A stretch of 64,000 nt of DNA from Alphaproteobacteria bacterium (GTDB taxonomy: Bacteria; Pseudomonadota; Alphaproteobacteria; Rs-D84; SZUA-605), in contig JAVBPW010000005.1 of the NCBI GenBank assembly GCA_031549385.1, positions 64,001 to 128,000 of the forward strand, written 5' to 3'. The notes below the pieces were generated by a model, which was not told the origin of the DNA, did not search any database, and worked only from the letters and a program-made list of their open reading frames with translations. The translations under genes were made by a program, and so were the position numbers. Every line of letters begins with the position of its first letter. Position 1 is the stretch's first letter. Below, one piece after another: positions 1,911-5,629 of this stretch.

Positions 1911-1925
1911 ATAAAAAAAACAGGC

Positions 1926-2000
1926 TATGACCTCTTTTGATGTTTTATCAAATTGTAGGCGTCCCCAAAACTTTTATGCACGCCTCGTTGTGTTGTCATA
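1926..2000 (-). ncRNA. Unrecognised three-way-junction RNA, copy 1 (stand-alone gene)
   Basis: UAUGAC-AACACAACG-AGGCGU[17 nt]ACGCCU-ACAA-UUUGAU[AAAAC]AUCAAA-AGAG-GUCAUA. It has its own promoter (2012-2039) and terminator (1884-1910), no ORF, and covaries with copy 2. Confidence 0.7.
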
Positions 2001-2011
2001 AGAAGACTTTT

Positions 2012-2039
2012 ATTATATAACATTATTAAGCTAAGTCAA
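2012..2039 (-). promoter_or_regulatory. Sigma70-type promoter of ncRNA copy 1
   Basis: Minus strand TTGACT (2039-2034), 16-nt spacer, TATAAT (2017-2012). Confidence 0.6.
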
Positions 2040-2061
2040 TTATTTTAAAAATAAAGGTAAT

Positions 2062-2086
2062 AAAAAATCCTCCCTTTCGGGAGGAT
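2062..2086 (-). terminator. Intrinsic terminator of the ACP-like gene
   Basis: Minus strand ATCCTCCC-gaaa-GGGAGGAT followed by a T run. Confidence 0.85.
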
Positions 2087-2118
2087 CGCTGTCAGAGACA
2101 GACATCAAACGCAAGCTA

Positions 2119-2415
2119 CTACGAAAAGCATTGTGCGAAGCGCTTTACAGTCAAAGGCTTTTGGCCTTTATCGTACCAGCTGGAAGTTAATTCAGCTGGA
2201 GACATGGTGAACGTGGTATTTGTTACTCGTTCTATCCTTTGGGCGGCAGCTGCTACATCTAAGTAGTCAACTTCCAGGCCAGTGTAGATATCACCATTGC
2301 CTTTTCGGTAAACTGTTTTTGCTACGCATTCGGCAGTTGTGCCGGTTTCTCTTGCGAGAGCCATGTAACAGGCTCTTTCCATGTCCCTTATCGGGACTTT
2401 TCTTTGTTTGTTCAT
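2119..2415 (-). CDS. Acyl-carrier-protein-like protein (98 aa) with DYL instead of DSL
   Basis: Likely ATG at 2415, downstream of the promoter at 2447-2475. GLEVDYLDVAAAAQRIE aligns to ACP DLGADSLDTVELVMALE, and LTVKRFAQCF to TTVQAAIDYI. Ends in a double TAG stop. Confidence 0.6.
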   Translation of the reverse strand: MNKQRKVPIRDMERACYMALARETGTTAECVAKTVYRKGNGDIYTGLEVDYLDVAAAAQRIERVTNTTFTMSPAELTSSWYDKGQKPLTVKRFAQCFS

Positions 2416-2446
2416 ATATATTAAATTTTTAAGGTTTGAGCTCAAG

Positions 2447-2475
2447 ATATTACCATTTAATTTAAAAAATGTCAA
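2447..2475 (-). promoter_or_regulatory. Sigma70-type promoter of the ACP-like gene
   Basis: Minus strand TTGACA (2475-2470), 17-nt spacer, TAATAT (2452-2447). Confidence 0.7.
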
Positions 2476-2504
2476 ATATTAATTTAAAAAATTAAAATAT
2501 AAGG

Positions 2505-2538
2505 AAAAGAAAAGGGCAGATTTACTTAAAAATCTGCC
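2505..2538 (-). terminator. Intrinsic terminator of the tRNA-like/ncRNA transcript
   Basis: Minus strand GGCAGATTT-ttaagt-AAATCTGCC followed by CTTTTCTTTT. Confidence 0.8.
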
Positions 2539-2564
2539 TCAATCCTAACTGTTTCAGTTGGTGC

Positions 2565-2622
2565 ATGCAACCTCCACCTTTCGGCTTGTAGGCGTGCAAA
2601 AACGCCTCGTTATTTGTTGCAT
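2565..2622 (-). ncRNA. Unrecognised three-way-junction RNA, copy 2
   Basis: AUGCAAC-AAAUAACG-AGGCGU[UUUUGC]ACGCCU-ACAA-GCC[GAAA]GGU-GGAG-GUUGCAU. The GNRA loop and G-U pair fix the minus strand. It lies 4 nt downstream of the tRNA-Gly-like RNA. Confidence 0.7.
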
Positions 2623-2626
2623 TTTG

Positions 2627-2697
2627 AAAGGGTGACGGGCACTGATCCCGCGACCTTCTCCTAGCAAGGAGCTGCTCTACCTCTGAGCTACACCCTT
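2627..2697 (-). ncRNA. tRNA-like RNA derived from tRNA-Gly(GCC), non-canonical
   Basis: AAGGGUG/CACCCUU acceptor with U73, intact D-arm GCUC-AGAGGUA-GAGC, 6-nt anticodon loop UUGCUA, T-loop AUCAGUG, no encoded CCA. Confidence 0.75.
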
Positions 2698-2723
2698 TGT
2701 CCTATAGGGTTTTAATAACCCTG

Positions 2724-2796
2724 CGGGCATGACTGGATTTGAACCAGCTACCTGGTCGTTTAGAATGACTTGCTTTACCAAATCAGCTTCATGCCC
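2724..2796 (-). tRNA. Atypical tRNA with CUA (amber) anticodon; suppressor or pseudo-tRNA
   Basis: GGGCAUG/CAUGCCC acceptor, G73, D-loop with G18G19, loop UU-CUA-AA (anticodon at 2761-2763), T-arm GCUGG-UUCAAAU-CCAGU. Deviations: A8, two A-C mismatches in the anticodon stem, no encoded CCA. Confidence 0.7.
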
Positions 2797-2862: not shown

Positions 2863-3417
2863 TTAAAATTTTAGCGAATAACCATTATCGTCAGTTTGTA
2901 TTAAATTGGCTTGAGTTGTGAGTTCTAGCTTTTGACGAAGGTTGTAAATGTGAGTCTTCAAAGTGTTTGTTTGAATGTTTTTGTCGTATCCCCAAATATT
3001 TTTCAATATTTCATCAGGGGTTGCATAGTGATTTGGTTGTTTTAATAAGAATAATAGTAATTCTTGTTCTTTTTGAGTTAATTCTATTTCTTGTTTGTTG
3101 CAAAAGAATGTGTTGTCTTTGATTTTGAACTTATCACAAGTAAAGGAATCTTCTGAAACTAATAAATCTTTTATTTTTTGCTTTAATTCAGATGGAAGAA
3201 TAGGGAGCTTTATAAAATGTGGTCCTTCTTTTTCGTCTGAAACTACTAGGTATCTCTTTGAATTTTGAGGAATATCTTTTTCATTGATTGTTATAATAAA
3301 AGAATCTTTATCATTAGTTTTGCTTTTTGTTGTGGAAATTGTTTTAAACATACCTTTAAGTAAGGATGTTAATAACCCTTCTTCCAATTTATCAAAACCT
3401 ATTAAGATTAAATTCAT
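2863..3417 (-). CDS. OmpR/PhoB-type winged-helix regulator with a degenerate receiver domain
   Basis: C-terminal IELTQKEQELLLFL...ILKNIWGY...TNTLKTHIYNLRQKL...GY. Start moved to ATG 3417 because the longer ORF overlaps tRNA-Cys. Confidence 0.85.
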   Translation of the reverse strand: MNLILIGFDKLEEGLLTSLLKGMFKTISTTKSKTNDKDSFIITINEKDIPQNSKRYLVVSDEKEGPHFIKLPILPSELKQKIKDLLVSEDSFTCDKFKIKDNTFFCNKQEIELTQKEQELLLFLLKQPNHYATPDEILKNIWGYDKNIQTNTLKTHIYNLRQKLELTTQANLIQTDDNGYSLKF

Positions 3418-3441
3418 GCGATTTTCAATGTTTAGTGTTAG

Positions 3442-3515
3442 TGGAGGCCGGTACCGGAGTCGAACCGATCTAGAAGGATTTGCAGTCCTCTGCATAACCG
3501 CTCTGCTAACCGGCC
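3442..3515 (-). tRNA. tRNA-Cys(GCA)
   Basis: GGCCGGT/ACCGGCC acceptor, GAGGA-CT GCA AA-TCCTT anticodon arm, U73 and CCA. Confidence 0.96.
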
Positions 3516-3660
3516 TCATTTTTTAACTTGCTTAGTTTATTATATTTATATTTTTGTGTCAATTGTAAAAATGGGAGTTTTTTCAGCTTTTTTGAAAGTC
3601 AACCCTAAATTTCTGATTTTTTTAATTATTTTTTTGTTTTTTAGGTTTTTAAAAGTCTGA

Positions 3661-4761
<1,101 letters not shown>

Positions 4762-4762
4762 A

Positions 4763-5629
4763 ATGGAAATAAAAAAATTATTTGGTGGAAATTCACTTGT
4801 CAGAGATTTAAAAAAAGGTGATGCTTATTCTTTAGGTAAAAATATTTATGGAAATGAACAGACTATAGAATTAGACAATATGTCTGCATTAGATGGTTTA
4901 GCTAATCAACTTTATGCTTCTTCTAAAGAATATGACTTGAAGGAAATTGCTAAACGATATTCTGGACAAGATCCTAAAACTTTAGCTAAGATGATGGCTG
5001 TTAATACATATATGATTGGTGAAAATCTTGATAATGCAGAAGCTAAAAAAATTAATTTGAAAATGCAAAGAGAAGATTTTGCTTTTTCACAGTTGCATGG
5101 AAATCATGTTGTTAATCCTGCGGTAACTAATTTGACTACTCAATATCTTTTACAAAAGATGGGTGCAGATAGTAGAATATTCAATGGAAAAATTGGTTTT
5201 ATCGAAGATGAAGTACAAATTGAAAATACTTCTGTTGTCGTGAGAGATGAAAATGGTAATCCTATGATGTTGGATTTTAATGATGATAATATAGACCCAA
5301 TTAACGATAGGAATATTCCTATATTTAATGTTAAAGGTGGGGCTGGAAATTATGATAAACTTCTTGAACAAGGTGAAAAACAAGCAGCTTTTGTTCAATG
5401 GGATGGAGTTGGTTATAATAAGGGAAGTTACCTTTATGGAGTGGATAGAAAAAGTTCTATTGAAATTGATGAAAGAAGTATTATTGGAAATAGTGCTTTT
5501 GAAGGAAAATATAAAGCTTTCAAAAGAAAATCTGATAATCAATTTGAACAGACGTTCCAAAATACAGATGAAGAACTTCAAAGATTTATTGAATTTGCTA
5601 TTAGAAATAAATTTGAATCTCCAGAATAA
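4763..5629 (+). CDS. Hypothetical protein, possibly an inactive transglutaminase-like fold
   Basis: 288-aa ORF starting 1 nt after ccrM, host-like codon usage. The fold resemblance is weak. Confidence 0.6.
   Translation: MEIKKLFGGNSLVRDLKKGDAYSLGKNIYGNEQTIELDNMSALDGLANQLYASSKEYDLKEIAKRYSGQDPKTLAKMMAVNTYMIGENLDNAEAKKINLKMQREDFAFSQLHGNHVVNPAVTNLTTQYLLQKMGADSRIFNGKIGFIEDEVQIENTSVVVRDENGNPMMLDFNDDNIDPINDRNIPIFNVKGGAGNYDKLLEQGEKQAAFVQWDGVGYNKGSYLYGVDRKSSIEIDERSIIGNSAFEGKYKAFKRKSDNQFEQTFQNTDEELQRFIEFAIRNKFESPE

Follow-up and report, generated by a model that had tools for sequence, protein, structure and literature searches.

Two RNA copies and their putative transcription units

The window analysed here is a stretch of 64,000 nucleotides (nt) from an Alphaproteobacteria bacterium (GenBank assembly GCA_031549385.1, contig JAVBPW010000005.1, positions 64,001 to 128,000 of the forward strand), and all positions below are counted from its first letter. 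Its minus strand carries two copies of a small structured RNA, copy 1 and copy 2, which an initial annotation made from the letters alone had described as an unrecognised three-way-junction RNA at 2000-1926 and 2622-2565. The minus-strand reading and RNAfold agree with the proposed stems and junctions at these positions, and the RNAfold output for each copy is the three-way fold described, with helices P1, P2 and P3, joining strands J12, J23 and J31 and a P2 loop (L2). The junction thus stood as annotated, whereas the element boundary did not, because the tail 3' of P1 pairs with the end of the P2 loop. Judged by sequence consensus and covariance-model scores, both copies are members of a junction-pseudoknot family. 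The features of the two units are as follows.

2039-2012, minus strand: promoter-like site of copy 1 (TTGACT, 16-nt spacer, TATAAT; 11/12 matches)
2006..1912, minus strand: copy 1, full element, with a short 5' leader, the three-way junction (2000-1926), a pseudoknot tail and a U-run
2000-1995 with 1931-1926, minus strand: copy 1 helix P1, UAUGAC:GUCAUA in the minus-strand reading
Copy 1, minus strand: J12, AACACAACG
1985-1980 with 1962-1957, minus strand: copy 1 helix P2, AGGCGU:ACGCCU, with a 17-nt loop
1979..1963, minus strand: copy 1 L2, containing an A/U sub-helix, AAAA/UUUU
Copy 1, minus strand: J23, ACAA, and J31, AGAG
1952-1936, minus strand: copy 1 helix P3, UUUGAU/AUCAAA
1925..1913, minus strand: copy 1 3' tail, GCCUG (1925-1921) and U-run, with CCU (1924-1922) as the 3' strand of the pseudoknot
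1909-1889, minus strand: terminator-like hairpin and U-run 3' of copy 1
2796..2723, minus strand: tRNA with anticodon CUA (amber-suppressor type), first gene of the copy 2 unit, called by ARAGORN
2697..2626, minus strand: aberrant tRNA-like gene directly 5' of copy 2 (ARAGORN 'tRNA-???'; 44.5 bits with the Rfam tRNA model)
2625..2555, minus strand: copy 2, full element, with the three-way junction (2622-2565) and tail
2622-2616 with 2571-2565, minus strand: copy 2 helix P1, AUGCAAC:GUUGCAU
Copy 2, minus strand: J12, AAAUAACG
2607-2602 with 2595-2590, minus strand: copy 2 helix P2, the same helix as in copy 1, with a 6-nt loop
Copy 2, minus strand: J23, ACAA, and J31, GGAG
2585-2576, minus strand: copy 2 helix P3, GCC-GAAA-GGU
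2538-2515, minus strand: terminator-like hairpin closing the tRNA/tRNA/copy 2 unit, copy 2 being the last element before it

Copy 1 folded at -17.1 kcal/mol (z -3.0), a value equalled by none of 200 shuffles in RNAfold, and copy 2 at -18.4 kcal/mol (z -1.8), equalled by 12 of 200. The core pattern common to both copies matched twice in the window and never in 100 shuffles, and in the whole genome of 931,143 bases its two matches were again these copies. Neither outcome that the initial annotation had named as speaking against it occurred: Rfam gave no significant match, and with only two copies in the genome the element is not a dispersed DNA repeat. Copy 2 is a typical short three-way member of the family, and copy 1 is a lineage-specific form in which an A/U hairpin is inserted in L2. 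Three of the four 3'-terminal G's of this loop (1965-1963) pair with the tail. In copy 2, a possible pseudoknot joins loop UGC (2598-2596) to tail GCA (2564-2562); it was recognised by eye, as UGC:GCA occurs in other members, and is not decisive alone, since the best 3-bp (base pair) option of the script was a different one.

Copy 1 is followed by its terminator-like hairpin and then by a convergent tRNA-Val (ARAGORN), and no open reading frame (ORF) of at least 40 amino acids (aa) overlaps either copy. The proposal that copy 1 has its own promoter and terminator and no downstream ORF agrees with these promoter-like and terminator-like sites and with the convergent tRNA that it faces. Copy 2, by comparison, starts 3-4 nt 3' of the second of two co-oriented tRNA-like genes. 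The first of these, the CUA tRNA (2723-2796), scores 54.7 bits with the Rfam tRNA model and has two mismatched anticodon-stem pairs, and the second (2626-2697) combines an anticodon loop of 6 nt with a T loop of non-canonical form. The tRNA/tRNA/copy 2 unit may be of phage origin. The 53 long ORFs of the window end in TAA (41), TAG (8) or TGA (4), and from these stop codons the host appears to read TAG as stop, despite the CUA tRNA. Two further details of copy 2 are not conserved in other members: a short hairpin, AACUG-AAA-CAGUU, at 2540-2555 (minus strand) between the copy 2 tail and the terminator, and an AUG that lies 4 nt past the GGAGG of J31/P1' and opens a 14-codon frame.

In one metatranscriptome run, contigs covered 2079-2422 and 2627-2785 within the region. 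The contig at 2627-2785 spans both tRNA-like genes upstream of copy 2 and stops at the tRNA 3' end, 2627, which gives a weak indication, from contigs only, that the unit containing copy 2 is transcribed. The contig at 2079-2422 corresponds to a 97-aa ORF between the copies and runs from near its start codon into its terminator. This ORF (2119-2412, minus strand) has its own promoter-like and terminator-like sites and is covered end to end by the RNA contig, at a depth of 55, the highest of the region. It had no Pfam or PHROG match, and no homolog was found in any other family locus fetched.

Extent, consensus and covariation of the family

The further homologs whose absence would, according to the initial annotation, have spoken against an RNA function proved to be abundant. 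With a free P2 loop, the core pattern matched at least 119 stretches among genome contigs and at least 119 contigs from viruses. Small gut Alphaproteobacteria, such as that of the window, are among the hosts. Carriers among the matches listed include Saccharibacteria, Paceibacterota and other lineages in the candidate phyla radiation (CPR), the DPANN archaea Woesearchaeota and Nanoarchaeota, 'Candidatus Enterousia' and uncultured Alphaproteobacteria (both with copy1-type RNAs), many phages and scattered others. Some matches with long GC-rich spacers are chance hits in coding sequence. A strict parse, with thresholds of at least 5 bp for P1 and at least 3 bp for P3, recovered 105 full junction RNAs among 226 unique matches; 62 of the 105 are four-way, 29 three-way and 14 of another form. 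The script also missed many members, which are to be found among the other matches. One copy per genome was present in all five CPR/DPANN genomes checked. BLAST, which is poor for this motif, returned nothing at E 0.01 for one four-way member against cultured phages. At E 10 it returned five records with matches of 27-33 nt, three under protein-coding annotation and two (one phage, under two accessions) under none, and these were not taken as members.

From 5' to 3', the element consists of P1, an optional arm, AACG, P2, L2, P2', ACAA, P3, RGAG, P1' and the tail, within about 60-95 nt, and about 20 nucleotides of the core are invariant. Most members are four-way, with an extra hairpin between P1 and AACG that is flanked by GUA and GAAY, a pair of flanks that we take to resemble a bulged-G or loop-E module. 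The initial annotation went no further than the two copies and their junction; the wide spread, the predominance of four-way forms, the pseudoknot between L2 and the tail and the link to tRNA genes and arrays all lie beyond it.

Thirty-six four-way members were aligned by plain MAFFT, not fitted to structure, and 92.4% of the cells pair, compared with 33-40% with slid partners, a percentage inflated by the selection of these sequences for helices of >=5 bp (P1) and >=3 bp (P3). This pre-filter does not explain the variety of pair types: 221 cells are double changes, compared with 66 in shuffles, and none of 500 shuffles reached the observed value. Compensatory change occurs in P1, the arm and P3. 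An alignment that mixed three-way and four-way forms misplaced P1 and was not used for counts. The proposal of a structured, unrecognised RNA core with conserved junctions and covarying stems is borne out, with many homologs, covariation of P1 and P3 and no Rfam match.

As the first pattern had fixed P2, a second one relied on the arm and junction and put no constraint on P2. Eighteen of its 20 matches were true members, and AGGCG:CGCCU was present in 18/18; the loop-closing pair was U-A in 15, C-G in one and unpaired in two. The P2 helix is really invariant. The family pseudoknot, in turn, is a helix of 3-5 bp between the 3' end of L2 and the sequence immediately 3' of P1. Over 107 sequences, the mean best helix between L2 and the tail was 3.64, compared with 3.16 +/- 0.09 with swapped tails, and none of 1000 swaps reached the observed mean.

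Two covariance models connect the window copies with this family. R1 was built from five copy1-type homologs of the same order, found by a relaxed pattern, with copy 2 left out; it matched copy 1 end to end (90.2 bits) and also copy 2 (28.9 bits, E 8e-4). R2 was built from the 36 four-way members, since R1 aligned only their core, and only locally; its training set held no sequence from the window or its order. R2 gave 79 matches at E <=0.01 in 99 viral loci. It scored copy 2 with 34.1 bits (E 1.2e-7) and copy 1 with 30.6 bits (E 1.3e-6), the latter score coming from the core because the model forces a poorly paired 'arm' out of the copy 1 5' leader, and it had no other match in the window or genome. 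As R2 aligns the missing arm of copy 1 badly, the three-way reading from R1 and from the copy1-type alignment (A8) is the one to be trusted.

R1 matches were found in 13 of 150 relatives. All 13 belong to one family (f5; 13/122), and the genome of the window belongs to another (f1). In most of the 13 relatives, ychF closely precedes the RNA and shares its strand, dnaG follows in convergent orientation (identities checked with Pfam), and these sites have their own promoter-like (by eye) and terminator-like elements. A8 comprises 19 copy1-type sequences aligned by plain MAFFT. P1 is paired in 100% and P3 in 97% of its cells, with five of six pairs compensated in each helix, and overall pairing is 95%, compared with 41-53% with slid partners. 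In these sequences the final bases of L2 form one strand of the pseudoknot, and their partners lie two positions past P1'. Columns 59-100 are GC in 12 and AU in 7, columns 58-101 are GC in 19/19, and columns 57-102 are GC in 10 and GU in 9. The UUUU directly after the pseudoknot is invariant (19/19), and the AAAA:UUUU sub-helix in L2 never covaries. In copy1-type RNAs, the 3' U-tail could therefore lie parallel to the A strand of this sub-helix, the orientation that a U.A-U triple helix requires, and would in this way hide the RNA's own 3' end.

Two observations concern variant architectures. Phage locus L197 has two diverged tandem copies, at 3214-3310 and 3374-3469 (both minus strand), and the window likewise has two; in the second L197 copy the P2 loop-closing pair changes from U-A to C-G, the only compensated change seen in P2. 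Eight loci on viral and genome contigs (L243, L237, L022, L245, L149, L076, L257 and L181) show a second architecture, in which the AACG/P2/ACAA module has a conserved loop, CCAYGNA. At least some of them form a hairpin with a 4x4 internal loop and have no P3 or RGAG, and they often adjoin tRNAs or tRNA-like T arms. The AACG/P2/ACAA module may thus be an autonomous recognition unit that is reused in different scaffolds.

tRNA genes, other neighbours and known RNA classes

Among 238 family loci, tRNAs within 300 nt of a member lie on the same strand in 68 cases and on the opposite strand in one. Such a tRNA is present in 35 of the 238 loci, including 26 of the 119 viral ones. In phage tRNA arrays the RNA takes a tRNA-like slot, with a gap between the upstream tRNA and P1 of -1 to 147 nt in the 11 cases parsed; the gap is within +/-5 nt in two of them and 13-147 nt in the others. 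In L052, L152 and copy 2 the distance between a tRNA 3' end and the start of P1 is -1 to 4 nt. No downstream tRNA begins less than 10 nt from P1', a spacing that accommodates the pseudoknot tail, and some of the tRNAs nearby are odd or of suppressor-like type. The RNA of CPR and archaeal genomes is intergenic, with varied neighbours. The RNA itself was rejected as a tRNA: neither copy was called by ARAGORN or the Rfam tRNA model, and a single ARAGORN prediction overlaps the P2 module across the 238 loci.

The strand bias of 68:1 and the frame of promoter-like and terminator-like sites bear on whether the conserved object is RNA at all. P2 is a perfect inverted repeat, and the contexts are mobile (phages, and a variable island in the window), as would suit a repeat, a recombination site or folded single-stranded DNA. 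Yet the window genome has only two copies, and G-U pairs are kept among the 36 four-way members (an arm pair is GU in 7 and a P3 pair is GU in 5), which on the other strand would be A-C. We regard a DNA-level element as extremely improbable.

The same arrangement could also reflect a module that acts in cis on stability or processing, namely a nuclease-resistant knot that punctuates the transcript or protects tRNAs or the 3' end, with no function in trans. The strict co-orientation with tRNAs and the tRNA-like slots and spacing in arrays would fit this, as would the position of copy 2 as the last element before the terminator of its unit. The topology, in which a pseudoknot between loop and 3' tail closes a junction, also appears to resemble exonuclease-resistant folds. 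However, 203 of the 238 loci lack a tRNA within 300 nt, copy 1 stands alone, as do its 13 relatives, and keeping about 20 nucleotides invariant from archaea to phages would be unnecessary for a simple roadblock, so that a purely cis-acting module seems distinctly unlikely.

No protein gene was found to accompany the RNA. Among 32 cellular and phage loci there was no common downstream gene, and all-against-all clustering of 1158 ORFs from 134 loci gave no neighbouring protein family shared across lineages: the clusters are lineage-specific, and the largest covers 14 of the 134 loci, all of one lineage. The antitoxin role suggested in the initial annotation is unsupported, given that no neighbouring protein gene is conserved across lineages. 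Within the CPR there is possible synteny: in loci L039, L042, L065, L066, L067, L102, L119 and L131 the RNA lies near a convergent gene that is secA-like by its N-terminal sequence, and the record titles seen for these loci name Saccharibacteria, Paceibacterota and relatives.

A riboswitch was likewise rejected, in line with the view taken of copy 1 at the outset, as a terminator-like hairpin and then a convergent tRNA-Val come after copy 1 and no downstream gene is common to the family loci. A related possibility is an aptamer for a small molecule or ion, acting in trans or as a sponge, or an orphan riboswitch with the following terminator as its expression platform. The invariant junction core, the pseudoknot beside a terminator hairpin in many cellular members and the typical size and complexity speak for an aptamer. 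Against this, there is no consistent downstream gene, many members sit between tRNAs without an expression platform, and copy 1 faces a convergent tRNA. Such an aptamer or orphan riboswitch is, in our estimate, very unlikely.

Measured against named RNA classes, the family is a new class. At the gathering score, Rfam 15 gave seven matches in the window, all of them tRNAs; between 1850 and 2720, the overlapping matches at E <=10 all lay far below threshold (for example L20_leader, 18.7 vs 58.7 bits, and DapZ, 21.1 vs 56). Rfam found only tRNAs on 12 loci with the core pattern, with no GOLLD or ROOL, and nothing relevant at E <=10 on two four-way members. The statement that the copies match none of the hammerhead, twister, pistol, hepatitis delta virus (HDV), purine and glutamine cores thereby holds for Rfam 15. 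In size, in the combination of a junction with tertiary pairing, in optional stems and in a patchy spread over phages and metagenomes, the family is like twister, hammerhead, pistol, hatchet and twister-sister. Unlike them, it carries AACG, ACAA, RGAG and AGGCG:CGCCU, which are not their cores, its P2 does not covary, and no member tested received a score from their covariance models.

A close parallel in setting is with the theta ribozymes, HDV-like ribozymes of gut phages that lie beside phage tRNAs on the same strand, often suppressor tRNAs, and 77% of which are reported to be within +/-1 nt of a tRNA end (PMC10879173). The family resembles them in being a small pseudoknotted RNA on the strand of phage tRNAs, and copy 2 itself follows a tRNA-like gene by 3-4 nt in a unit with a CUA-anticodon tRNA. 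HDV-like and theta ribozymes nest P1, P1.1, P2, P3 and an optional P4 in a double pseudoknot, with the 3' strand of P1 directly after P3, and use a catalytic cytosine in J4/2 for self-scission. The family fold is unlike theirs, in that the P3 hairpin and RGAG separate P2 from P1' and the folds inspected contain no nested double pseudoknot and no second long-range helix of the HDV type. The distances to tRNAs also differ, varying from -1 to 147 nt in the family, and there is no HDV-type Rfam match. The family was set apart from HDV-like and theta ribozymes for its different strand order, and a start within +/-5 nt of a tRNA 3' end, seen for copy 2 and for 2 of the 11 parsed cases, is not general.

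A new self-cleaving or otherwise catalytic class is the main alternative. Its active site would be built from the invariant junction strands and P2, with the pseudoknot holding the fold in place, and in tRNA arrays the RNA would cut polycistronic transcripts as theta ribozymes do. A compact junction with a pseudoknot and about 20 invariant nucleotides, an optional stem that gives three-way and four-way forms, and a patchy cross-domain spread that is heavy in phages are all as expected of such a class. Co-orientation with tRNAs adds to this, as do the three cases with P1 at -1 to 4 nt from a tRNA 3' end (L052, L152 and copy 2) and the odd or suppressor-like neighbouring tRNAs, an association also reported for theta ribozymes (PMC10879173). 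On the other hand, with gaps of -1 to 147 nt, only 2 of 11 lie within +/-5 nt, in contrast to the 77% within +/-1 nt given there for theta. In addition, the stand-alone genes with promoter and terminator have nothing obvious to cleave off, and no Rfam ribozyme family matches. A five-bp helix that never covaries is atypical of the small ribozyme classes. Catalysis as the function appears somewhat unlikely on balance. The more specific claim that this cross-domain class, with its invariant core as active site, is a new natural ribozyme acting on itself or on tRNA-related substrates we consider unlikely.

Two kinds of phage RNA of unexplained role offer further comparison. The T4 species 1 and species 2 RNAs (rnaC and rnaD; NC_000866) are, like family members in arrays, small RNAs encoded within a phage tRNA cluster; they share the strand of the tRNAs and immediately follow one of them. 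They are stable RNAs of unknown function, annotated at 119 and 139 nt (NC_000866) and so longer than family members; as relatives they were rejected, with no R2 match at E <=0.01 in the T4 tRNA region and no shared core by reading. GOLLD and ROOL are structured RNAs of phages and prophages that are reported to be often near tRNA islands, of unknown function and with no known protein partner (PMC12286853). The family shares with them its carriage by phages near tRNAs. It differs in size, its 60-95 nt contrasting with the several hundred nucleotides (often more than 800 for GOLLD) and multimeric cages described in PMC12286853.

It is possible, though doubtful, that the family is real and has already been described under another name or catalogue number. 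It is abundant enough for large comparative screens to have met it, and catalogues of thousands of unnamed candidate structured RNAs exist, among them the one in PMC10690425. On the contrary side, Rfam 15 gave no match to the window copies or to four-way members in either mode (gathering score; E <=10), and full-text searching for core strings and keywords gave nothing that fits: the core strings returned only unrelated primer-type matches among the 20 of 193 papers listed, and the keywords led to no fitting description. The consensus is not described in the parts consulted of PMC10690425 or of the preprint 10.64898/2026.09.22.753630, whose supplementary tables may list it unnamed. If undescribed, this widespread structured RNA of about 60-95 nt would join a short list of those shared by bacteria, archaea and their viruses. 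R1 and R2 find the element easily, and could be used to annotate what is currently left blank in genomes.

A proposed trans-acting role and other features of the region

With five base pairs and three junction strands invariant, and a pseudoknot besides, the conservation is unusual and implies a precise molecular job. In the reading that we favour, though tentatively, the RNA is quite possibly a stable trans-acting RNA that is released from tRNA transcripts or made from its own genes and acts on a common partner. It would be made either within tRNA transcription units, as for copy 2 and in many phage tRNA arrays, or from its own promoter and terminator, as for copy 1 and the ychF-dnaG relatives. 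In tRNA units, it would be set free as a stable, stand-alone species by the nucleases that process the tRNAs on either side, with its 3' tail folded back on the body and shielded by the pseudoknot. The invariant surface of the junction and P2 would then be presented in trans to a partner present in bacteria, archaea and phage-infected cells. Since no partner gene travels with the RNA, this partner would most plausibly come from the tRNA-maturation or translation apparatus, and the RNA would be a mimic, decoy or cofactor rather than a cis regulator. The fold with its covariation and pseudoknot, the family membership, the link to tRNAs and the lack of an Rfam match are observed, whereas transcription, processing and stability of the two copies are inferred, as is the partner.

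Several points weigh against a stable trans-acting RNA. An invariant junction with a pseudoknot also looks like a catalytic or ligand-binding core. The distribution is patchy: the RNA is present in 13 of 150 relatives and in 1 of 150 genomes sampled across the class of the window, and in none of six relatives of one CPR carrier, too few for a rate. Such patchiness is unusual for an RNA of a universal machine and is more in keeping with a small ribozyme or with an element that is mobile or accessory; it also rules out a housekeeping RNA present in one copy in every small genome. The pre-filter behind the paired fraction of the four-way members and the forced arm in the R2 alignment of copy 1, both noted above, belong on the same side. 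No RNA contig covers either copy in the one run, which is uninformative, as such libraries usually lose small RNAs.

The setting of phage tRNA arrays and suppressor-type tRNAs bears on the role of the non-tRNA small RNAs found there, T4 species 1 and 2, GOLLD and ROOL among them, which are still unexplained. The small size of the RNA suits direct biochemistry and structure work, so that the question is testable.

Further genes lie beyond the copy 2 unit. The protein encoded at 2863-3519 (minus strand) matches only an OmpR-type winged-helix C-terminal domain, with no match to a receiver domain, and it matches PHROG 731 (unknown function). The longest reading of its ORF overlaps a tRNA-Cys gene (3442-3515, minus strand), and the true start is probably further downstream. 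At 3673-5629 (plus strand), an N6/N4 DNA methylase with a RAMA domain is followed by a 288-aa protein without a family match; the two may be a restriction-modification pair. They lie in the same variable stretch as the RNA copies, between radC/tRNA-Val and ksgA.

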